Position numbers and translations under genes: made by a program | The notes under the pieces: model-generated | The model's input: only the letters and a program-made list of their open reading frames with translations | What the model was told of the DNA's origin: nothing | Database searches by the model: none | IMG/VR virus record: IMGVR_UViG_2529292887_000008 | Direction: 5' to 3' (one strand) | Source: a virus | Taxonomy: Duplodnaviria; Heunggongvirae; Uroviricota; Caudoviricetes | DNA: 11,155 bases | In this document: positions 1-10,766 of the stretch, piece by piece | Layout of the letters: each line of letters begins with the position of its first letter | Numbering within the stretch: the first letter of the stretch is position 1

Positions 1-1230
1 ATGAGCAGAGCACTTAACAAACTGAGCGATACACAGCTGAGGAAAATCAACGGCACACCCGCCCAAAAAACAGCCTTTCTTAATGACGGTGGAAACCTGA
101 GCGTCAGGCATTCAACCAGTGGCCTTTTAACCTGGTATTTCACTTACAGGGCCGGAACGGGAAGGGGGGCACCACCGGAACGCATTAAGCTGGGAAATTA
201 TCCTGATCTGAGCCTGAAATCAGCCAGGGAAAAAGCCGCCCAGTGTCGCGCATGGCTGGCAGAGGGGAAAAATCCACGTCATGAAATGAATTACACCGTA
301 CAGGAAGCGTTAAAGCCGGTAACGGTTGGCGATGCGCTCACCTACTGGCTTGAGTCGTACGCAAAGGAAAACCGTGTGGATTATGACCCACTGAAAAAGC
401 GGCTAAATAATCACGTAATACAGCACATTGGCCCTATGCCGCTGGATAAATGCGAGCTACGGCACTGGCTGGCCTGTTTTGATCGGGTGGCAAAGAAAGC
501 CCCTGTTTCCGCCGGGTTCCTGCTACAGACATGCAAGCAGGCGCTTAAGTTCTGCAGGAAGCGGCGCTATGCAATCAGCAACGTTCTTGATGATATGAGT
601 GTGGCGGACGTTGGGAAAAAACCGGATATAAGTGAGCGTGTCTTAAGTAACAAAGAACTTGGCGAATTATTGCAGGCACTGGACAAAAAAATATTTTCCC
701 CTTACTACGTCGCACTAATCCGCCTCCTGATTGTTTTCGGATGCCGGACAGTAGAACTGAGGTTATCGGAGATCGGCGAGTGGGATTTTACCGAAATGCT
801 CTGGACCGTTCCGAAGGAGCACAGCAAAACGAAGGTAGCCATATTCCGGCCCATACCGGAAGCGATACTGCCGTTCGTCACGCAGCTGGTGGAGCAGAAC
901 AGGCACACGGGCTTATTGCTGGGGGAAGTGAAACAGGAAACCAGCGTATCGCAGTACGGCAGATTGGTGCACAGGAGGCTTAAACACCCTCACTGGTCAC
1001 TGCATGACATCCGGCGCACCTTTACAACCATGCTGAACGATTTAGGCGTTGATCCTCACGTCGTGGAGCAGCTTACAGGCCACCAGATGCCAGGAATGCA
1101 ACGCGTGTACAACCATTCCCGCTATATTGATGCGAAACGCAATGCGCTTGATATGTGGGTGGAGCGGTTGGAGATACTGGCGGGAACACATGAAAACGTA
1201 ACCACGCTACCAGTAACCAGAATAAAATAA
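1..1230 (+). CDS. int: Tyrosine site-specific integrase, P4-type (409 aa)
   Basis: N-terminal P4-Int-like arm-binding region (LSDTQLRK...LNDGGNLSVRHS...TWYFTYR...IKLGNYPDLSLKSAREKA) and C-terminal catalytic motifs (LHDIRRTFTT...GHQ...VYNHSRY). ORF begins at window position 1. Confidence 0.9.
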   Translation: MSRALNKLSDTQLRKINGTPAQKTAFLNDGGNLSVRHSTSGLLTWYFTYRAGTGRGAPPERIKLGNYPDLSLKSAREKAAQCRAWLAEGKNPRHEMNYTVQEALKPVTVGDALTYWLESYAKENRVDYDPLKKRLNNHVIQHIGPMPLDKCELRHWLACFDRVAKKAPVSAGFLLQTCKQALKFCRKRRYAISNVLDDMSVADVGKKPDISERVLSNKELGELLQALDKKIFSPYYVALIRLLIVFGCRTVELRLSEIGEWDFTEMLWTVPKEHSKTKVAIFRPIPEAILPFVTQLVEQNRHTGLLLGEVKQETSVSQYGRLVHRRLKHPHWSLHDIRRTFTTMLNDLGVDPHVVEQLTGHQMPGMQRVYNHSRYIDAKRNALDMWVERLEILAGTHENVTTLPVTRIK

Positions 1231-1604: not shown

Positions 1605-1793
1605 GTGTTAAGCACTGATCGGTTTATACGTGAAAAAGAATGCGAAAAGCTAACAGGCCTTAGCCGCTCATGCCGCTACCGCCTGGAAAAGGCCGGACAA
1701 TTCCCATCACGTCGTAAACTTGGTGGGCGTTCTGTTGGCTGGTCTTTATCTGAGGTTTTGGCCTGGAAGGATAGCTGCAAGGCAGTTCACTAA
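1605..1793 (+). CDS. alpA: AlpA-family (Phage_AlpA) DNA-binding transcriptional regulator, 62 aa, GTG start
   Basis: Motifs LTGLSRSCRYRLEKAGQFP...RKLGGRSVGWSLSEVLAWK match the AlpA helix-turn-helix family; RBS AAAGGGGG about 8 nt upstream of GTG at 1605; position immediately after int as in Gram-negative PICIs. Confidence 0.8.
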   Translation: MLSTDRFIREKECEKLTGLSRSCRYRLEKAGQFPSRRKLGGRSVGWSLSEVLAWKDSCKAVH

Positions 1794-2036: not shown

Positions 2037-2240
2037 TCAGGCTGGTGGGCAATTACCTTGCTTGTTGGGGCCGTATTGTGCTGCCATTTTCATCCGTTCA
2101 GAACGTGAATATTTTTTTAGAAACTCATCAAGGACAAAAGCGCATGGAGCGAATCTTTCTGATTCATGCTCGAGCGCCATATTTTCGTGCTCTCTGTTCG
2201 TTTTTTGCGATGGTGTATTGGTTGATTCTTTATTGGTCAT
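2037..2240 (-). CDS. Small hypothetical protein (67 aa), paralogue of 2698-2925
   Basis: Shares N-terminus MTN(K/N) and motif ERFAPCAFVLDEFLKKYSRS / EKFALEDFVDKYPRR and a C-terminal PP(A/G) with the 75-aa protein at 2698-2925; preceded by the same conserved ~45-bp leader. Confidence 0.5.
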   Translation of the reverse strand: MTNKESTNTPSQKTNREHENMALEHESERFAPCAFVLDEFLKKYSRSERMKMAAQYGPNKQGNCPPA

Positions 2241-2246
2241 TGTGTG

Positions 2247-2294
2247 TACCTGTAAAGCAATGCGCCGGAGTTCCTCACGCCACGGCGCTGATGT
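2247..2294 (-). promoter_or_regulatory. Conserved ~45-bp intergenic element (copy 2) between RHH gene and small-protein gene
   Basis: CCTGTAAAGCAATGCGCCGgAGttCCTCACgCCACGGCGCTGAT nearly identical to 2931-2980; contains inverted repeat GCGCCG...CGGCGC (6-bp stem, 15-nt loop) followed on the transcribed strand by AUUGCUUU. Confidence 0.45.
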
Positions 2295-2297
2295 TTT

Positions 2298-2477
2298 TTA
2301 TTCTTTGGGTTCAATACCGCGTTGCTGTAATTCTTTTCGGATTATTCGTTTTATCCAAGCAGCTAAAGAGTCATCACCGTCTTGTTGTTGTGCTTTTTCC
2401 ATCTTTTCCCGTAAGTCAGGATCTAAACGGAACTGGAAAGGAGGATTACCACGCCTTTCATTCTTGTGTGTTGACAC
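2298..2477 (-). CDS. Ribbon-helix-helix (Arc/CopG-like) DNA-binding protein, 59 aa, putative GTG start; absent from the ORF track
   Basis: Manual minus-strand translation: VSTHKNERRGNPPFQFRLDPDLREKMEKAQQQDGDDSLAAWIKRIIRKELQQRGIEPKE; predicted beta-strand FQFRLD plus two helices parallels the RHH protein at 2983-3162. In-frame ATG at 2402 would remove the beta-strand, so GTG 2477 is preferred. Confidence 0.45.
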   Translation of the reverse strand: MSTHKNERRGNPPFQFRLDPDLREKMEKAQQQDGDDSLAAWIKRIIRKELQQRGIEPKE

Positions 2478-2498
2478 GTCAATTACACCCCATATAAT
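2471..2498 (+). promoter_or_regulatory. Near-consensus sigma70 promoter (TTGACA - 16 bp - TATAAT), plus strand
   Basis: -35 TTGACA at 2471-2476 and -10 TATAAT at 2493-2498; overlaps the putative start of the minus-strand RHH gene. Confidence 0.45.
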
Positions 2499-2542
2499 GT
2501 GTTTATGTGTATATACACATTACACACAACTAGCACAAAAAA

Positions 2543-2578
2543 CAACGCCCCGCAGTGATGGGAACACATACGGGGCGT
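2543..2578 (-). terminator. Hairpin with downstream U-tract on minus strand (putative terminator between modules); also 5' part of repeated leader element copy A
   Basis: Stem ACGCCCCG (2543-2550) / CGGGGCGT (2571-2578); on the minus strand followed by TGTTTTTTGTGC. Confidence 0.4.
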
Positions 2579-2665
2579 CTAACCAAACCATTAATTGAGG
2601 TAACGATTATGGTTATAAAAGAGCATAGCTTACTCTTTATACACACACAAACGCCCCGGAAACGG

Positions 2666-2688
2666 AATAATCCGTTTCATAGTTCGGT
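2666..2688. terminator. Perfect 8-bp hairpin GAAACGGA-ATAA-TCCGTTTC just past the stop of the 2698-2925 gene
   Basis: Stem-loop read directly from sequence, 10 nt beyond the minus-strand CDS end; the flanks are T-rich on the plus strand and GU-rich on the minus strand. Confidence 0.4.
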
Positions 2689-2697
2689 TTTGTGCAC

Positions 2698-2925
2698 TCA
2701 TCCTGGCGGTCGGTTTTTGCCGGATTTAAGCCGCCGTGGGTATTTATCGACAAAATCTTCAAGGGCAAATTTTTCTGGTGGCACTAAGCGCGGCGCTGGT
2801 GGTGGTATTTTTGTTCTGGTTAGTTCTTCCTCAAGTCTGGCGCAGGCTTCTGACTGCCTTTGCCGGATGATTTCATCATCTTGCGTTTGCGAGTCTTGTA
2901 TTGGTGATAGTGTGTTGTTGGTCAT
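2698..2925 (-). CDS. Small hypothetical protein (75 aa), paralogue of 2037-2240
   Basis: MTNNTLSP...EKFALEDFVDKYPRRLKSGKNRPPG; shares motifs and the upstream conserved leader with the 67-aa paralogue. Confidence 0.5.
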   Translation of the reverse strand: MTNNTLSPIQDSQTQDDEIIRQRQSEACARLEEELTRTKIPPPAPRLVPPEKFALEDFVDKYPRRLKSGKNRPPG

Positions 2926-2930
2926 GATAC

Positions 2931-2980
2931 TGCCCTGTAAAGCAATGCGCCGTAGTACCTCACACCACGGCGCTGATAGT
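2931..2980 (-). promoter_or_regulatory. Conserved ~45-bp intergenic element (copy 1) between RHH gene and small-protein gene
   Basis: CCTGTAAAGCAATGCGCCGtAGtaCCTCACaCCACGGCGCTGAT; differs from copy 2 only at loop positions of the GCGCCG/CGGCGC hairpin. Confidence 0.45.
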
Positions 2981-2982
2981 GA

Positions 2983-3162
2983 TTATTCTGATTCTTTGGC
3001 CTTGCGACGCTGGCGGTATTCAACTTCCCGCTTTAATGCAGCTGTAACAAACTGCCCTGTACTTTCGCCGGGCATTTTTACCGCCTCAACATTGTTCATA
3101 ACTTCATGTGGAACCCTTGCCGCAACTGTTTGTGATTTTGCGTTTACTGCTTTTGTCGCCAT
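2983..3162 (-). CDS. Ribbon-helix-helix (Arc/CopG/MetJ-like) DNA-binding protein, 59 aa from ATG 3162 (ORF track starts at GTG 3171)
   Basis: MATKAVNAKSQTVAARVPHEVMNNVEAVKMPGESTGQFVTAALKREVEYRQRRKAKESE: beta-strand TVAARV, helix A, G-x-S/T turn, helix B; SD GAGGGG 8 nt upstream of ATG 3162. Confidence 0.6.
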   Translation of the reverse strand: MATKAVNAKSQTVAARVPHEVMNNVEAVKMPGESTGQFVTAALKREVEYRQRRKAKESE

Positions 3163-3212
3163 GTTGAGCACCCCTCATAAAAAACAAATGCAGTATGCAG
3201 GAAAAAAAATAA

Positions 3213-4158: not shown

Positions 4159-4458
4159 ATGAAACTTAAATATTCTGGCTTAACTGCCAGTGGCAACACT
4201 CACCCTAAATTTACGCGCGGTGATATTTACCGCGACCAGTACGGCGGCACGGTAATGATTAAGGGCGTGGCGGGACGGTGCGTAACTTACCGCCGTGAAG
4301 GTTACGAATATGATTGCGTGATGCCTGTTTATCAGTTCCGGCGTGATTTTTCTCTGGTACAGACCGCGCCGCATAACGTGCCCACCAGCAACGCCAGGGC
4401 ACGGGCAAACATCCAGAAGCTGAAAACCATGATTAACGGATTCAGGGGTAAAAAATGA
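4159..4458 (+). CDS. Hypothetical protein (99 aa)
   Basis: SD GGAGA 9 nt upstream of ATG 4159; stop overlaps the primase start (ATGA at 4455-4458). Confidence 0.55.
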   Translation: MKLKYSGLTASGNTHPKFTRGDIYRDQYGGTVMIKGVAGRCVTYRREGYEYDCVMPVYQFRRDFSLVQTAPHNVPTSNARARANIQKLKTMINGFRGKK

Positions 4459-6203
4459 AACTGGCACCGAACGTAAAAAAACAGCCACGCGGAATAAAAC
4501 ACAAAGACACAGAGGTAATTATCTTTGCGGGTAGTGATGCCTGGTCGCACGCGAAACAATGGCAGGAGCAGGATGGCCCCGCATCCGGCGATAATGTGCC
4601 GCCTGTGTGGCTTGGGCCAAAGCAGCTTGCCGAACTTGATGCGCTGAAAATTGTTCCGGATGGGAAAAAGCGCGTAAGGCTGTACCAGGCCGGAGAACTG
4701 GATTTAGTGGAGACCAAAAAGATTGGTCAGAAGCTGGCGGCGGCAGATATTCAGGACGCAAATTTTTACCACGAAGGAATGCACGTCCAGAAGTGTGAAA
4801 ACTGGCGGCGCTATCTGAATGCTGAGCGTGAAAATATTGCCGCAGGGCTTACCATGCCGGAGCAGAAAAATACGCAACTGGCACAAATGGCAGACAGTGA
4901 GCGCGCACAGATGCTTGCTGGTCGATTTGATGGCGTTTGTGTGCATCCGGAAAGTGAAATCGTTCACGTATGGCGCGGCGGGGTATGGTGTCCGGTCAGC
5001 ACAATGGAACTTAGCCGCGAAATGGTGGCGATCTATTCAGAGCACAGGGCCACTTTCAGCAAGCGCGTAATCAATAACGCCGTGGAAGCATTAAAAGTTA
5101 TTGCCGAACCAATGGGCGAGCCGTCCGGCGATTTGTTGCCGTTCGCCAATGGTGCGCTTGACCTGAAAACAGGGGAATTTTCCCCGCACACGCCGGAGAA
5201 CTGGATCACCACGCACAACGGCATTGAATACACGCCACCAGCACCAGGGGAGAATATCCGCGACAACGCGCCAAACTTTCATAAATGGCTTGATCACGCA
5301 GCCGGAAAAGACCCGCGCAAGATGATGCGTATATGTGCCGCGCTGTACATGATTATGGCGAACCGGTACGACTGGCAGATGTTTATTGAGGCCACCGGAG
5401 ACGGCGGGAGCGGTAAAAGTACATTCACACACATAGCCAGCCTTCTGGCAGGGAAACAGAACACGGTAAGCGCTGAAATGACATCGCTTGATGATGCTGG
5501 TGGACGTGCGCAGGTTGTCGGGAGTCGTCTTATCGTCCTGGCAGACCAGCCGAAATATACAGGCGAAGGAACGGGCATCAAGAAAATCACGGGCGGCGAC
5601 CCCGTGGAAATAAACCCGAAATATGAAAAGCGTTTCACGGCGGTAATCAGGGCGGTGGTGCTGGCGACCAATAATAACCCGATGATATTCACCGAACGGG
5701 CCGGAGGTGTGGCACGTCGTCGCGTGATTTTCCGTTTCGACAATATTGTTAGTGAGGCCGAAAAAGACAGGGAACTACCGGAAAAAATTGCGGCTGAAAT
5801 CCCCGTTATTATCCGCCGCTTGCTGGCGAACTTTACCGACCCTGAAAAGGCGAGGGCTTTACTACTGGAACAGCGTGACGGTGATGAAGCACTGGCAATA
5901 AAGCAACAGACGGATCCGGTTATTGAGTTTTGCCAGTTCCTGAATTTTCTGGAGGAAGCGCGCGGCCTGATGATGGGTGGCGGTGGTGATTCAGTGAAGT
6001 ACACGACCAGGAACAGCCTTTACCGCGTCTATCTGGCGTTTATGGCATACGCAGGCAGGAGCAAACCGCTAAACGTGGCTGAGTTCAGCAAGGCCATGAA
6101 GCCAGCGGCGAAAGTTTACGGGCATGAATATATTACGCGAAAAGTTAAGGGAGTAACGCAGACCAACGCAATTACAACAGACGATTGCGACGCGTTTTTA
6201 TAA
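4455..6203 (+). CDS. Replication initiator: P4-alpha / D5-family primase-helicase (582 aa)
   Basis: Walker A GDGGSGKST (nt ~5401-5427), Walker B-like RLIVLADQ, and overall resemblance to the phage/plasmid primase P4-family C-terminal domain; SD AGGGG upstream; iteron origin immediately downstream as in PICIs. Confidence 0.88.
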   Translation: MKLAPNVKKQPRGIKHKDTEVIIFAGSDAWSHAKQWQEQDGPASGDNVPPVWLGPKQLAELDALKIVPDGKKRVRLYQAGELDLVETKKIGQKLAAADIQDANFYHEGMHVQKCENWRRYLNAERENIAAGLTMPEQKNTQLAQMADSERAQMLAGRFDGVCVHPESEIVHVWRGGVWCPVSTMELSREMVAIYSEHRATFSKRVINNAVEALKVIAEPMGEPSGDLLPFANGALDLKTGEFSPHTPENWITTHNGIEYTPPAPGENIRDNAPNFHKWLDHAAGKDPRKMMRICAALYMIMANRYDWQMFIEATGDGGSGKSTFTHIASLLAGKQNTVSAEMTSLDDAGGRAQVVGSRLIVLADQPKYTGEGTGIKKITGGDPVEINPKYEKRFTAVIRAVVLATNNNPMIFTERAGGVARRRVIFRFDNIVSEAEKDRELPEKIAAEIPVIIRRLLANFTDPEKARALLLEQRDGDEALAIKQQTDPVIEFCQFLNFLEEARGLMMGGGGDSVKYTTRNSLYRVYLAFMAYAGRSKPLNVAEFSKAMKPAAKVYGHEYITRKVKGVTQTNAITTDDCDAFL

Positions 6204-6486: not shown

Positions 6487-6801
6487 ATGCGCATACATCA
6501 AAATCACTTAACAAACATGCCAGCCGAAAACATGAATCAGGGGCGACAAATGACCAAAATTCGCAGAGACAGAACAGAGCCAAAATATAAAGCGTTAGAC
6601 ATGACTGAGCACACCTTAAAGGTGGCAATCAGAACGATAGACCGCCACACGCGGGAAGGATACGCGAAGGAACATCCCGAACTGATAAGCGCATTCATGA
6701 CCACAGCGGCGGCAAACTTTGCCACGCTGACAGAACGGGAGATTGCCGAAGCGGAACAGGTAACAACCATCAACGTTAAAACCGGAGAGGTGGAATCATG
6801 A
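6487..6801 (+). CDS. Hypothetical protein (104 aa; alternative starts at 6550 or 6601 possible)
   Basis: SD AGGGGG upstream of ATG 6487; stop overlaps ssb start (ATGA at 6798-6801). Confidence 0.5.
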   Translation: MRIHQNHLTNMPAENMNQGRQMTKIRRDRTEPKYKALDMTEHTLKVAIRTIDRHTREGYAKEHPELISAFMTTAAANFATLTEREIAEAEQVTTINVKTGEVES

Positions 6802-7208
6802 CAGCACAGATAGCCGCTTACGGGCGGCTGGTGGACGACCCGCAGGTAAAACAGACCAGCAAGGGCACACCGATGACGCTGGCGCGTATGGCGGTCCCCC
6901 TTCCGTGCAGCCAGGCAGATGACGGAACGGCTACGTTATGGCTATCGGTGATGGCATTTGGTAAGCAGGCCGACTTCCTGGCTAAACATCAAAAAGGCGA
7001 CGTTGCCAGCATATCTGGCGTGATGCAGATAAGCCAGTGGACCGGACAGAACGGGGAAACGCGGCAGGGTTATCAGGTTATTGCAGACAGCGTAATCAGT
7101 GCCCGTGCGGCACGTCCTGGCGGGAACAGACGCAAAACCACAGGCGCACAGGGTAATCAGCCACCAGCGGGAGACGATGACCCCTACGGTGATGATATTC
7201 CGTTCTGA
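6798..7208 (+). CDS. ssb: Single-stranded DNA-binding protein (SSB-like, 136 aa)
   Basis: C-terminal acidic tail DDDPYGDDIPF (the canonical SSB tip is DDDIPF), Gly/Gln/Pro-rich linker, N-terminal OB-fold-like region (AAYGRLVDDPQV...LWLSVMAFGKQA...); SD GGAGAGG upstream. Confidence 0.75.
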   Translation: MTAQIAAYGRLVDDPQVKQTSKGTPMTLARMAVPLPCSQADDGTATLWLSVMAFGKQADFLAKHQKGDVASISGVMQISQWTGQNGETRQGYQVIADSVISARAARPGGNRRKTTGAQGNQPPAGDDDPYGDDIPF

Positions 7209-7445: not shown

Positions 7446-7652
7446 ATGGCAGAAGAGAAAAAAGGCGGTGTTTCGGTGTACATAAGCCCCGAAATCGTGG
7501 AGGTGCTCAAGCAGCGCCACAAAAAAAACTATGAGGCTGGCGTAGCGGCTGGACTGGATCCGCTGATGACGCCGGAGCCGTCGATAGGTTCACTTGTGCG
7601 CTCTTATTTACTTGCGGCGCTTGGGATGCATAAAAATTATGGGGGTGAATAA
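7446..7652 (+). CDS. Hypothetical protein (68 aa), possibly RHH-like
   Basis: SD AAGAGGA upstream; the stretch VSVYISPEIVEVLKQRHKK suggests a beta-strand followed by a helix; stop overlaps capsid gene start (TAATG). Confidence 0.5.
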   Translation: MAEEKKGGVSVYISPEIVEVLKQRHKKNYEAGVAAGLDPLMTPEPSIGSLVRSYLLAALGMHKNYGGE

Positions 7653-8707
7653 TGGCAGGCAAAGCAACGGCACTTAACACTAACCAGCTTTTTGCGTACC
7701 TGAATCGCGGGGATATTGCGGAATTTAAATTCAGTCCGCTGTTTACCACGCTGTTTTTCCCGAACGTGGCGACATTCAGCACCCAAAACATCATGCTGGA
7801 TACCCTGGACATTGAAGAAGTCACCATGTCGGCGTTTTGTTCGCCTATGGTTGGCAGCCAGGTACAGCGCGATAAAGGATACGAAACCAGCACGATTAAA
7901 CCTGGCTACATGAAGCCAAAGCACGAAATCGATCCAACAAAAACCATCATGCGCATGGCTGGAGAAGATCCGGCACAGCTTAACGACCCTACCTACCGAC
8001 GTATGCGCCTGATTACTGGCAACATGCGCCGCCAGGTAAACGCCATTAAAGCGCGCGTGGAATGGCTGGCGGTGAATGCGATAACGACCGGAAAAAACAT
8101 TATTGAGGGCGAAGGCATAGAACGCTATGAAATAGACTGGAAAATACCGGAAAACTGCATCATAGAGCAGGGCAAGGGTAAAAAATGGTCCGAGCAGGAT
8201 AAAGAGATGCACGACCCAATCTATGACATCGAGCTTTATGCTGATCAGGCTGGTTGCCCCGCAAACGTCATGATTATGGGCGCTGAGGTATGGCGCACGT
8301 TACGCAGCTTTAAAAAATTCCGTGAGCTGTACGATCTTTCCCGTGGTTCAGAATCCGCCGCAGAACTGGCCTGTAAAAACCTGGGCGAAGTGGTGAGCTT
8401 TAAAGGCTATCTGGGCGATATTGCCCTTATCGTCTATTCCGGCAAATACGCTGACAGCGACGGCACAGAAAAATATTTCCTTGAGCCTGATTTGCTGGTT
8501 CTGGGCAACACCAACAATAAAGGGCTGGTGGCCTATGGTGCGATAATGGATCAGGAAGCGGTAAGAACGGGCGCAACACAAAACATGTTTTACCCGAAAA
8601 ACTGGATTGAGGACGGCGATCCGGCGATTGAGTACGTGCAGACACACAGTGCACCGCAGCCGGTACCGGCAGATATTCGCAAATTTGTTACCGTCAAAAT
8701 TGGTTAA
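7652..8707 (+). CDS. Major capsid protein, lambda gpE family (351 aa)
   Basis: Conserved blocks versus lambda gpE as I recall it: EFKFSPLF..LFF, PGYMKPKHEIDP, EDPAQLNDPTYRRMR, WSEQDKEMHDPIYDIELYA, RGSESAAELACKNLGEVVSFKGYLGDIALIVYSGKY, VLGNTNNKGLVAYGAIMD, YPKNWIEDGDPAIEY...SAP; similar length (351 vs 341 aa). Confidence 0.88.
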   Translation: MAGKATALNTNQLFAYLNRGDIAEFKFSPLFTTLFFPNVATFSTQNIMLDTLDIEEVTMSAFCSPMVGSQVQRDKGYETSTIKPGYMKPKHEIDPTKTIMRMAGEDPAQLNDPTYRRMRLITGNMRRQVNAIKARVEWLAVNAITTGKNIIEGEGIERYEIDWKIPENCIIEQGKGKKWSEQDKEMHDPIYDIELYADQAGCPANVMIMGAEVWRTLRSFKKFRELYDLSRGSESAAELACKNLGEVVSFKGYLGDIALIVYSGKYADSDGTEKYFLEPDLLVLGNTNNKGLVAYGAIMDQEAVRTGATQNMFYPKNWIEDGDPAIEYVQTHSAPQPVPADIRKFVTVKIG

Positions 8708-8719
8708 CGGGGGGATTCT

Positions 8720-9055
8720 ATGGACACTCCATACATTGAGTTATTTGCAGGCAGTCAGCAGGTCGCCACGACGCTGGTACATTTTGCCGCTGATGCTGGC
8801 GTTATTCAGGAATTTACCCCGCTGATGCTGGCGGACAATGGCGAGTTTAAGCCGTGGGATGGTAAGGAATCTGGCAAGGCTGTTTATCTGACCTCGTACC
8901 CTGTGGACACGTCAAAGCAGAAATCAGCACAGTGTTACAAGACGGGGATATTCAATATTGCCGCCGTTAACTGGCCTGAGAGCGTCGACACCGATGCGAA
9001 AAAATGCGCCGCCTTTGCGGGTTCCGGCGTATCCGTTCAGCCGCTGGCCCGATAA
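8720..9055 (+). CDS. Head decoration protein, lambda gpD family (111 aa)
   Basis: Blocks TPLMLAD, WDG, YKTGIFN, WPE, AFAGSGVS match lambda gpD (TPLMLD, WDG, YKSGTF, WPE, AFAGTAIS); same length class (111 vs 110 aa); SD GGGGGG upstream. Confidence 0.78.
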   Translation: MDTPYIELFAGSQQVATTLVHFAADAGVIQEFTPLMLADNGEFKPWDGKESGKAVYLTSYPVDTSKQKSAQCYKTGIFNIAAVNWPESVDTDAKKCAAFAGSGVSVQPLAR

Positions 9056-9067
9056 GCAGGGGGAACG

Positions 9068-9481
9068 ATGGCAACGAATGAAAGCATCATGACGCTACCG
9101 CTGGCGAGTAAATTTAAAGCCGAAGCGCGGGCAATGGCTGACAGAGGTTTATCAACCTATGAGGCCGTATATCAACTAAACAAACTGGAAGAGCAGGACA
9201 AGCCGCGCGCTGATGCGATTATGGCGCTTCATGAGCATAAAGACTATCAGCCGCTGTTGCGTGCAATGGCAAACGTGCCTTGTATCGATGTTGGTACGGC
9301 TAAAAGCATCCTTAGCATGACCATAGAGCAGGAACGTCCGAAGGTTGCGCCGGAACTTACCGCAGCCTTTGAAAACTTTATGGACATGCACAGCCCGCAA
9401 GCCGTATCAGCTGGCATGGCATACGATGGCAGAAACCAGGGCGATGACGGCGACATCGATCGCATACTGAAAACCATCTGA
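9068..9481 (+). CDS. Hypothetical protein (137 aa), last gene of capsid operon
   Basis: SD AGGGGGA upstream; followed by an intrinsic terminator. No family assignable from the sequence alone. Confidence 0.6.
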   Translation: MATNESIMTLPLASKFKAEARAMADRGLSTYEAVYQLNKLEEQDKPRADAIMALHEHKDYQPLLRAMANVPCIDVGTAKSILSMTIEQERPKVAPELTAAFENFMDMHSPQAVSAGMAYDGRNQGDDGDIDRILKTI

Positions 9482-9487
9482 GACAAG

Positions 9488-9509
9488 GCCGGAGAAATCC
9501 GGCTTTTTT
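9488..9509 (+). terminator. Intrinsic terminator (near-duplicate of 7217-7238)
   Basis: Stem GCCGGA (9488-9493) / TCCGGC (9498-9503), then TTTTTT (9504-9509). Confidence 0.65.
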
Positions 9510-9510
9510 A

Positions 9511-9686
9511 CGGGTCCTTCCTGGAATTATGGCCCGTTACGGGGCGGCGACCTCGCGCGTTTTCGCTATTTATGAGCCTTTTCAGGGGGGTGGTGGTGGT
9601 TTTGTTGTTTGCTCTATCTTTATGAATGAAAAGGGAAAGATGCAAACAATACACCAACCTGAAGCAGTAATTAAGTTGGTGTATTA
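9511..9686 (+). other. cos site 1 (plus orientation): lambda-like cosQ-cosN with a non-lambda cosB
   Basis: CGGGTCCTTCCTGGAATTATGGCCCGTTACG followed by GGGCGGCGACCT (9542-9553; identical to the lambda 12-nt cohesive end as I recall it) and CGCGCGTTTTCGCTATTTATGA; thereafter diverged, with an 11-bp inverted repeat AATACACCAAC (9648-9658) / GTTGGTGTATT (9675-9685) abutting the terS start. Confidence 0.7.
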
Positions 9687-10229
9687 ATGAAATCTCATCT
9701 GATGAACAAAAAAAACATGGCGAAAAGCTGCCGTGTAAGTGCGACAGCGTTCGACAAGTGGGGAGTGACTCCCGTTGAACGTAAAGGCCGTGAGGCGTTT
9801 TATGATGTTGCCAGCGTGATAGACAATAGGGTTAACAATGCAATTAGCCAGCTTACAAACGACAAAGGCGATATTGATGATGATGAACTCTTACGAGTCA
9901 GGATCAGATTACTGACAGCACAGGCGGAGGCGCAGGAACTTAAAAACGAGCGCGATCGCGGTGACGTGATTGATACTGAGTTTTGCCTGTACGCGCTTTC
10001 AAAGCTGGCGAGTCAGATTTCATCAATCATGGACAGCCTCCCGCTTACTATGCAAAGGAGCTTCCCACAGATTACCCCCGCCATGCTGGACAGGCTTAAA
10101 AGGGAAGTGGTTAAAGCCTGTAATGCCAGTGCCAGAGTTGCCGACAACCTCCCACAGATACTGGCTGATTACTTGAAAGAAACAACCGGAAACGTACCGG
10201 AAAAGTTGCTACAGAAGAAAGGCAAGTAA
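9687..10229 (+). CDS. Small terminase subunit, lambda Nu1-like (180 aa; ATG 9702 aligns better with the Nu1 N-terminus)
   Basis: LTAQAEAQELKNERDRGDVIDTEFCLYALSKLASQISSIMDSLPLTMQRSFPQ and LKREVVKACNASA parallel lambda Nu1 (LTRAQADAQELKNARDSAEVVETAFCTFVLSRIAGEIASILDGLPLSVQRRFPE...FLKRDIIKAMNKAA); N-terminus MNKKNMAKS...FDKWG parallels MEVNKKQLADIFG...QNWQEQG. Confidence 0.82.
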   Translation: MKSHLMNKKNMAKSCRVSATAFDKWGVTPVERKGREAFYDVASVIDNRVNNAISQLTNDKGDIDDDELLRVRIRLLTAQAEAQELKNERDRGDVIDTEFCLYALSKLASQISSIMDSLPLTMQRSFPQITPAMLDRLKREVVKACNASARVADNLPQILADYLKETTGNVPEKLLQKKGK

Positions 10230-10256
10230 CAGAAGCGCAATTATTGAACAAAAATG

Positions 10257-10451
10257 AGAAAGGATCTGATAATGGCATTTTCTGGCTAAAATGCCTCGTG
10301 TCAGATCCTTTCTTTTTTTAATATTTTCATTGTTAAACAGTCTGTTACAGAGAAGAAGAACGGATCTGACTTTTGCCGGAAAATTTTCATAAACAGATAA
10401 AAACCGCGAGGCCGCCGCCCCGTAACGGGCCATAATTCCAGGAAGGACCCG
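10257..10451 (-). other. cos site 2 (minus orientation): lambda-like cosQ-cosN-cosB with altered R elements
   Basis: Reverse complement reads CGGGTCCTTCCTGGAATTATGGCCCGTTACG-GGGCGGCGGCCT-CGCGGTTTTTATCTGTTTATGAAAATTTTCCGG...CCGTTCTTCTTC...AAAAGAAAGGATCTGACA...TCAGATCCTTTCTC, collinear with lambda cosN-cosB (R3/I1/R2/R1) but with GGATCTGA-type R elements at 10262-10269, 10301-10308 and 10362-10369; cosN complement at 10409-10420. Confidence 0.7.
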
Positions 10452-10484: not shown

Positions 10485-10766
10485 ATGACAGAAGCCGAAC
10501 TACTGCGATTAATCCGCCGCGTTACCGGAATCAGCCAGCAGCATGACGAACAGGGCACGCAACCGGACAGCGTGACCGCTGAAAATTATGCGCGTGTTGT
10601 TGCTGAGGTGATGCGCCGTGATGGTATTGAGCTTAACGGCGTGGATATGCGCAACATACGAACCAGAGTCCTTGAGTTGCTGGCATACCGTCGCCGCGTG
10701 GAGATGTATCGGGAGAAGGAGAAAATCACGTACCACTGGAAGAAGCCGGAACGGTTGCGGCGGTAA
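10485..10766 (+). CDS. Hypothetical protein (93 aa)
   Basis: SD GGGGGG 4 nt upstream of ATG 10485; protein-like composition; unknown family. Confidence 0.5.
   Translation: MTEAELLRLIRRVTGISQQHDEQGTQPDSVTAENYARVVAEVMRRDGIELNGVDMRNIRTRVLELLAYRRRVEMYREKEKITYHWKKPERLRR

Follow-up and report, generated by a model that had tools for sequence, protein, structure and literature searches.

The locus studied here raises the question of how an E. coli phage satellite that encodes a small terminase, TerS, and no large terminase directs packaging to its own DNA, and which sequence at its cos site that TerS would recognize. SatelliteFinder counts TerS, as a redirector of packaging, among the core components of PICIs (PMC10085698), and the presence of a terS homologue in some Gram-negative PICIs was noted as early as 2018 (PMC6092414). 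A PICI-encoded TerS is therefore a known concept, and the island described here varies a known piracy strategy in a predictable way; our literature search found no paper characterizing a TerS/cosB pair of the Nu1 type in cos PICIs. A first-pass annotation of the sequence had proposed that the island carries such a private pair, and had equated the cosB with an 11-bp inverted repeat next to the start codon of terS.

The island and its gene order

The 11,155-nucleotide stretch of DNA that was analysed as a whole (the window) is classed, by its ORF and Pfam content, as an approximately 11-kb Gram-negative PICI of the EcCICFT073 family, a satellite of E. coli phages. Its genes follow the PICI layout, with an integrase, alpA, a primase/replication gene, capsid-type genes, and a packaging module in that order (Table 1), and the ORF and Pfam content of the window includes no tail, lysis, or terL gene. 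The top genomic match is an insert of approximately 11.7 kb in tqsA, which marks the element as a chromosomal island. Of 5,426 complete E. coli genomes, at least 486, O157:H7 strains among them, cover segment 9400-10500 over at least 80% of its length.

Table 1. Genes and packaging elements of the window. Positions count from the first nucleotide of the window; bp numbers count from the cos1 nick.
Feature	Position	Strand	Remarks
Integrase	1-1230		
AlpA-like regulator	1605-1793		
D5-type primase	4455-6203		
SSB	6798-7208		
68-aa gene	7446-7652		
Lambda E-type capsid protein	7652-8707		
gpD-type decoration protein	8720-9055		
137-aa protein	9068-9481		
Terminator-like hairpin	9488-9510	+	GCCGGA-GAAA-TCCGGC followed by T6, read from the sequence; between the 137-aa gene and cos1
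cos1 cosQ/cosN region	9511-9586	+	Left arm of a 76-nt inverted duplication with cos2
cos1 cohesive end	9542-9553	+	bp 1-12; GGGCGGCGACCT, identical to that of lambda (compared with the lambda left end, L002)
cos1/terS region under study	9554-10229		
R3-slot block	9591-9609	+	bp 50-68; TGGTGGTGGTTTTGTTGTT; candidate primary TerS site
Left arm	9648-9658	+	bp 107-117; AATACACCAAC; conserved element, possible inverted R2 analogue
Right arm	9675-9685	+	bp 134-144; GTTGGTGTATT; overlaps SD-like GGTG at 9678-9681
terS	9687-10229	+	180-aa small terminase of the Nu1 family, with a predicted winged-HTH domain like that of N15, a coiled-coil middle, and a predicted lambdoid-type C-terminal TerL-docking region
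cos2	10256-10451	-	Inverted phage-type cos; cohesive end 10420 to 10409
cos2 R3-, R2-, and R1-like elements	10357-10369, 10301-10313, 10257-10269	-	GGATCTGA
93-aa gene	10485-10766		

The 137-aa protein belongs to phrog_1999 and has a second match to the C-terminal part (positions 495-567) of phrog_53, a head maturation protease/scaffold family. RefSeq annotation of it alternates between hypothetical and 'head-tail connector', and it may be a scaffold-like protein of the satellite, encoded beside the capsid and decoration genes. The minus strand of 2037-3171 carries a two-gene module in two tandem copies, with a YlcI/YnfO-like protein of 59 or 62 aa and a protein of 67 or 75 aa that starts MTN, and the long plus-strand ORFs over this module look spurious. 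Two further ORFs, 9529-9687 (+) and 10209-10433 (-), span the cos sites and were taken as mechanical ORFs, not genes.

The terminator-like hairpin that precedes cos1 is also present in EcCICFT073, and a consensus terminator scan did not flag it. A sigma-70 promoter scan found no promoter between this hairpin and terS, and none in the cosB interval. Because of the upstream hairpin, and with no sigma-70 promoter detected between it and the gene, expression of terS may require read-through or antitermination.

A mosaic small terminase of the Nu1 family

The product of the 180-codon gene was described in the first-pass annotation as a Nu1-type small terminase retaining both the N-terminal and the C-terminal regions of lambda Nu1, and database searches bear this out. 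The protein scores 83 bits against Pfam family Phage_Nu1 (PF07471; cutoff 30), matches PHROG 57, 'terminase small subunit', over residues 1-174 (E 3e-53), and aligns with lambda Nu1 at 35% identity over residues 6-166 (E 1e-34), a span that covers both regions. RefSeq likewise labels the gene 'terminase small subunit', and NCBIfam gave no match to the protein. The start codon is backed by a conserved N-terminus, M-x-x-H-L-[LM]-N-K-K, and relatives of 58% identity have the identical pattern, with a canonical SD upstream. The alignment to lambda Nu1 contains a gap of approximately 14-17 residues after the predicted winged HTH, a short linker in common with N15 gp1.

N15 gp1 is also the nearest phage protein, at 46% identity overall. 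Among 50,697 phage records there was no TerS above 60% identity, N15-like phage-plasmids reach 47% at most, and no TerS of a phage or phage-plasmid goes beyond that value. Over the DNA-binding domain (residues 6-50), identity is 60% to N15 gp1, at most 31% to lambda and other lambdoid Nu1 proteins, and 29% to Nu1 of the PhiR5_1 type. Over the C-terminus (residues 126-166), N15 gp1 and the lambda and other lambdoid Nu1 proteins stand at 32%, and the PhiR5_1-type proteins at 51-55%. The coiled-coil middle is 44-58% identical to phage Nu1 proteins. By these alignments the island TerS is a mosaic Nu1, combining an N15-like DNA-binding domain with a C-terminus that is nearest to E. coli lambdoid Nu1 proteins of the PhiR5_1/PhiR12 type.

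Residues 6-47 align with residues 3-47 of lambda Nu1. In an AlphaFold2 model built on a 15-sequence alignment, which is of low confidence (pLDDT 59), the elements follow the order alpha1-alpha2-hairpin-alpha3, as in a winged HTH. A Foldseek search of this model against the PDB returned no significant match, the top one being a MerR-type winged HTH with E about 0.5, and phmmer against PDB sequences recovered neither lambda TerS(1-98) nor RppC, the DNA-binding domain being too diverged for that search. The C-terminal part of lambda Nu1 has been proposed to bind gpA (PMC9026076); the C-terminus of the island TerS aligns with it and is predicted to be a TerL (gpA)-docking region.

In phages, terS lies next to terL. 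This is the arrangement in marine relatives of 38% identity, in N15, in lambda, and in one CFT073 prophage, where terL is directly downstream, whereas no gpA homologue was found in the window or in the flanks of any of about 100 satellite terS genes. The missing terL neighbour is the feature that makes the gene a satellite TerS.

Conserved elements between the cosN nick and terS

A collection of 103 loci encoding TerS relatives was assembled, 98 of which were used for comparisons of the interval from the nick to the terS ATG, with all intervals aligned on the nick. A profile search of genome contigs returned five loci when the query was an alignment and none when it was a single protein. The ATG of terS in the window is at bp 146 from the nick. 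The distance between nick and ATG is fixed: E. coli-lineage loci have 145 bp, and those of the lineage with 58% identical TerS (hereafter the 58% lineage) have 148-150 bp.

As the first-pass annotation had stated, R sites of the lambda type are missing from the cosN-to-ATG interval of cos1, the best match to the lambda R sequences having five mismatches in 16. The IHF consensus WATCAANNNNTTR, allowing up to one mismatch, is absent from bp 61-112 of the window in a scan that does recover lambda I1. Two elements in the interval are conserved. The first, which the earlier reading had missed, is a (GGT)n(GTT)n block in the R3 slot. It occurs in 97 of the 98 loci with a mean column conservation of 0.98, its flanks being variable, and bp 50-68 read TGGTGGTGGTTTTGTTGTT in the window and GGTGGTGGTGTTGTTGTT elsewhere. 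The second is the left arm of the inverted repeat, whose core, A[CT]A[CG]C[AC]AC, was found in every locus (98/98) at a constant distance from the nick, with conservation again at 0.98. The E. coli-lineage loci are closely related and such conservation may partly reflect recency, yet both elements are kept across TerS identities of 54-100%, across differing cohesive ends, and across dS values that reach 0.5-1.6. The left arm is complementary to the R3 block at 14 of 18 positions and could be an inverted analogue of R2.

Among the TerS sites of lambda, R3 (bp 50-65) is the critical one, and in N15 it is the sole site (bp 48-60, GAGGTTGTTGTTT) (PMC9026076). The island block occupies the same slot as N15 R3 and resembles that GTT-repeat sequence, with the GTT-repeat part in the satellites offset by approximately 8 bp from N15 R3. 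Because the DNA-binding domain of the island TerS is N15-like and N15 R3 lies in the same slot, the block at bp 50-68 is most likely the primary TerS binding site, a reading that draws on position, conservation, and analogy to N15. No match to the island cosB was found in the 50,697 phage records or in phage-plasmid records.

Two variable features adjoin these elements. At the 5' edge of the R3 block (bp 45-60), the G-run/GGT tract of L025, L026, and L027 is polymorphic in length and sequence, and L027 has lost 3 bp; slippage in this low-complexity tract, or an assembly error, could be the cause. The 12-nt cohesive end varies among islands that share one TerS/cosB module, the forms being GGGCGGCGACCT, GGGCGGAGACCT, GGGCGTCAGGCG, GGGCGGAAGGCG, GGGCGTCGACCT, and GGGCGGCAGACG, and the loci with differing ends include L023, L035, L052-L065, L072, and L096. 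Such variety suggests that the islands are matched to helpers differing in TerL or cosN type.

Relation to the Rpp cassette

For comparison, coordinates of the EcCICFT073 island (locus L005) were taken from the supplement of the 2018 paper. EcCICFT073 has the same genes in the same order as the window, including an identical decoration protein, and where the window has the 180-aa gene it has the 144-aa rppA. The window resembles Rpp-type islands through cosQ and cosN, being nearly identical to EcCICFT073 cos1 as far as approximately bp 35, and the resemblance ends approximately at bp 35-41 past the nick. Because synteny is otherwise intact, similarity breaks at the cosN/cosB boundary, and the encoded protein is unlike RppA, we interpret the difference as a cassette replacement, in which the island holds its own cosB and terS at the place where characterised EcCICFT073-type relatives carry another cosB together with rpp (PMC6092414, PMC6739421).

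The two cassettes share one short sequence. The core of the R3-slot block, GGTGGTGGT, lies at 9592-9600 (bp 51-59). Its exact reverse complement, ACCACCACC, stands in EcCICFT073 cos1 at bp 55-63 and is reported as a core identical in four Rpp-type PICIs (Murialdo & Feiss). The flipped shared core hints at a common origin, or else at a geometric rule for the placement on cosB of homodimeric TerS versus heterodimeric Rpp-TerS heads. A more general model, which we put forward as speculative, is that the packaging slot of enterobacterial cos PICIs might be a swappable cassette that is bounded by inverted cosN copies and holds either Rpp or a satellite-only TerS. Under this model TerS would keep an invariant N15-like head and R3 block while its tail diversifies to dock helper TerLs, and both cassette types appear to read one (GGT)3/(ACC)3 duplex core in opposite orientations.

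Given that terS occupies the rppA slot, the island TerS might instead act mainly in the manner of Rpp, heterodimerizing with the helper TerS through its DNA-binding domain and long helix; the complex would be retargeted to cos1 and the helper cos blocked, with the helper TerS still required. Rpp itself has a TerS-like DNA-binding domain and works by heterodimerizing (PMC6739421, PMC9026076), the coiled-coil middle of the island protein is close to those of phage Nu1 proteins at the identities given above, and the reverse-complementary R3 cores of the two cassette types lie at nearly the same position. We nevertheless consider this mode unlikely. BLASTP detects no similarity between RppA and the 180-aa protein (E = 1.3), in keeping with the earlier claim, now searched against both TerS/Nu1 and Rpp sequences, of a bona fide Nu1 homologue rather than an Rpp. 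Rpp proteins are 135-154 aa in length without the TerL-binding C-terminus, which Feiss proposes they borrow from TerS, whereas the island TerS, at 180 aa, keeps the full conserved C-terminal region of Nu1. In addition, the 14-17 residue deletion relative to lambdoid TerS at the junction of DNA-binding domain and linker falls in the heterodimer-interface region. By analogy with EcCICFT073-type islands, which need the helper's TerS, some dependence on helper TerS may exist here as well.

The inverted repeat next to the start codon

The repeat that the first-pass annotation described is present and perfect, with two 11-bp arms, AATACACCAAC and GTTGGTGTATT, a 16-nt spacer, and an end one nucleotide before the ATG (base 9686 is A). 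When the 159-bp cosN-to-ATG interval is dinucleotide-shuffled, 0.18% of the shuffles contain a perfect 11-bp inverted repeat with a spacer of 3-40 nt; for the whole window the figure is 8.3%. Across the family, however, the two arms have separate fates. Conservation within the interval is lowest in the right arm (0.85), which has the perfect form in only 24 of the 98 loci. Six other variants occur, including GTGGGGATATT, GTTGTGGTATC, GTTGGGATATT, GTGTGGGTATT, and GTGGGTGTATT, with 7-9 of 11 pairs retained and no compensation in the left arm. In the 58% lineage the right arm is replaced by AGAGGTGAAAATG, an ordinary SD, or by ACAGAGGAACAAATG. Because the right arm is perfect in so few loci, varies without compensation, and is replaced in the 58% lineage, the perfect repeat, although real, must be viewed as a feature of one sub-lineage and not as the recognition determinant of the family. 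The proposal that the repeat is the cosB is thus not supported, and the conserved elements are the R3-slot block and the left arm. Right-arm variants also do not track the DNA-binding domain, which is itself almost invariant. A symmetric operator for a TerS dimer and a conserved RNA hairpin were both rejected on the ground that the right arm varies uncompensated.

A regulatory form of the hairpin idea deserves separate mention. The GGTG at -9 to -6 within the right arm is the only SD-like sequence for terS, and the window repeat, taken as RNA, folds into a hairpin that covers it and ends 1 nt before the AUG (MFE -15.3 kcal/mol, z = -2.87). The left arm, which contains CACC, could accordingly pair with the SD-bearing right arm in terS mRNA and throttle translation, with no role in DNA recognition. 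We regard this as quite improbable, since 74 of the 98 loci keep 7-9 of 11 pairs with no compensatory changes, L011 yields z = -0.5, and no hairpin forms in the 58% lineage. Conservation of the left arm extends to loci in which it has no partner, which argues for a DNA function or for a function independent of the right arm. In the reading that we prefer, with the R3-slot block as the main recognition element, the repeat would arise where the SD region happens to complement the conserved left arm, and the right arm would at most add an R1-like site or damp translation of terS.

The second cos site

On the minus strand, cos2 carries a complete cosB of lambda architecture, with R sites at the R3, R2, and R1 positions. 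These sites match the cosB of phage SerU-LTIIb (L108), whose TerS has a lambda-type DNA-binding domain. Islands with 99-100% identical TerS have a different cos2 cosB type, CATGTCGG/CGACA, and the inverted cos2 is absent from about 50 of the 83 loci with enough flanking sequence. Because islands with identical TerS differ in cos2 or have none, the GGATCTGA sites of cos2 were rejected as the cognate of TerS, which appears to be linked to cos1. As far as the sequence can tell, this speaks against the condition under which the first-pass annotation would have been refuted, namely that the protein binds only the cos2 elements.

The variable cassette cosB1-terS-cosB2 is bracketed by the 76-nt inverted cosQ/cosN copies, whose arms (9511-9586 and 10376-10451) are 87% complementary. 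These copies could act as recombination handles for exchange or inversion of the cassette.

Distribution of terS and selection on the gene

Every relative with at least 54% identity to the island TerS is satellite-borne, either in PICIs like that of the window or in helper-embedded satellites. The gene is intact at 180 codons in 82 of 84 loci of the E. coli lineage. Relative to the terS of the window, dN/dS is 0.10-0.22 overall and 0.02-0.09 in the DNA-binding domain, and the gene is under purifying selection. The C-terminal third evolves fastest at the protein level, with a dN of 0.11-0.25 for residues 126-180 (10062-10229) against 0.02 for the DNA-binding domain.

The relatives of 54-59% identity (169-170 aa; L008-L021, L102, L103) belong to satellites inserted in the prophage capsid gene E. 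They share the R3 block and left arm with the window and have a canonical SD instead of the right arm. Helper-embedded PICIs inserted in the prophage capsid E gene have been described (PMC10111431); 11capE is described there as being without terS, and helper-only cos packaging is presumed for it (PMC10111431).

In a further reading, terS and its cosB would be a fragment captured from a phage and now idle, the helper terminase alone packaging the island via cos2 or the shared cosN. In its favour, helper late genes are captured by satellites of this family (PMC10111431), interference by EcCICFT073 does not require its capsid and decoration genes (PMC6092414), and cos2 is a complete phage-type cos. 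This reading is nevertheless very improbable and is contradicted by selection and distribution: terS is under strong purifying selection and almost always intact, is never accompanied by terL, occurs without cos2 in about half of the loci, has no phage source for either its cosB or its TerS in the 50,697 phage records, and is present in the hundreds of complete E. coli genomes (at least 486) counted above.

Proposed packaging mechanism

Because terS is always satellite-borne without terL in about 100 related loci, is under purifying selection, and has no counterpart with a close TerS or cosB in phage or phage-plasmid records, the data support a private TerS/cosB pair. We conclude that the packaging-specificity slot of this EcCICFT073-family PICI probably holds a satellite-specific Nu1-family TerS and its cognate cosB instead of Rpp. 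The private pair of the first-pass annotation is therefore supported with respect to the satellite-only terS, the missing terL, and a cosB without a phage match, and is not supported with respect to the repeat as that cosB.

After induction by a lambdoid helper, the island TerS would bind cos1 through its predicted N15-like winged-HTH domain. It would chiefly contact the (GGT)n(GTT)n block at bp 50-68, with the inverted element at bp 107-117 as a possible second site. The C-terminal domain of TerS would recruit the helper large terminase, gpA/TerL, which would nick the lambda-type cosN and package island concatemers. Competition of the island TerS for TerL would depress packaging of the helper.

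Such a mechanism would be a second and simpler route by which cos-type PICIs capture the lambdoid packaging motor, through a TerS of their own versus an Rpp adaptor. With at least 486 complete E. coli genomes carrying the segment, this route would be a common one. To the known concept of a PICI-encoded TerS, the present analysis adds the N15-like head, the R3-slot block, the cassette relation to Rpp, and the independence from cos2. With the likely recognition site now placed in the R3 slot, at a G/T-repeat block that is short and conserved, TerS-cosB specificity becomes directly testable. These details may be of use in picking cos/TerS pairs for engineered PICI delivery vehicles and in predicting which helpers mobilise which islands.

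Comparison with known systems

The closest known arrangement is Rpp/cos1 of EcCICFT073 (PMC6092414, PMC6739421). There, as in the window, the gene sits between two inverted cos sites and a private cosB adjoins a lambda-type cosN, and the presumed outcome, a helper terminase redirected to island DNA, is common to both. The systems differ in the protein, Rpp being shorter by the lengths given above and the island TerS being a full-length Nu1 homologue with a predicted C-terminal TerL-docking region. They differ also in the distance from nick to ATG (145 bp in the window and 101 bp in EcCICFT073) and in the orientation of the R3 core, GGTGGTGGT in the island and ACCACCACC in EcCICFT073.

N15 gp1 (PMC9026076) resembles the island TerS in its DNA-binding domain (60% identity), in its short linker, and in having a G/T-repeat element in the R3 slot. 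Unlike the island gene, that of N15 is followed by terL and serves a phage. The N15 cosB is 88 bp long with a single R3 and no IHF site, terS starting at approximately bp 89, whereas the island interval is 145 bp long and contains a second conserved element. The C-terminus is lambda-like in N15 gp1 and PhiR5_1-like in the island TerS.

Lambda Nu1 and its cosB (R3-I1-R2-R1) have the protein family, the domain order, and the cosN in common with the island. The island cosB may also share the inverted R3/R2 logic of lambda, with the bp 50-68 block and the inverted bp 107-117 element in the corresponding roles. The R sequences themselves are unrelated (at least five mismatches in 16), an R1-like copy is confined to some lineages of the island family where lambda cosB has R3-R2-R1, and the island cosB is 45 bp shorter than that of lambda, with no IHF consensus between its two elements.

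Helper-embedded PICIs (PMC10111431) are hosts of the terS relatives of 54-59% identity, whereas the island of the window is chromosomal. The TerS of pac-type SaPIs offers a parallel of a different kind. It too is a satellite TerS that partners the helper TerL, packages satellite DNA, and competes with the helper, but it belongs to an unrelated TerS family and serves headful, pac-type packaging, whereas that of the island is of the cos/Nu1 type. In its logic, then, the island TerS resembles the SaPI TerS, and in its outcome it resembles Rpp.
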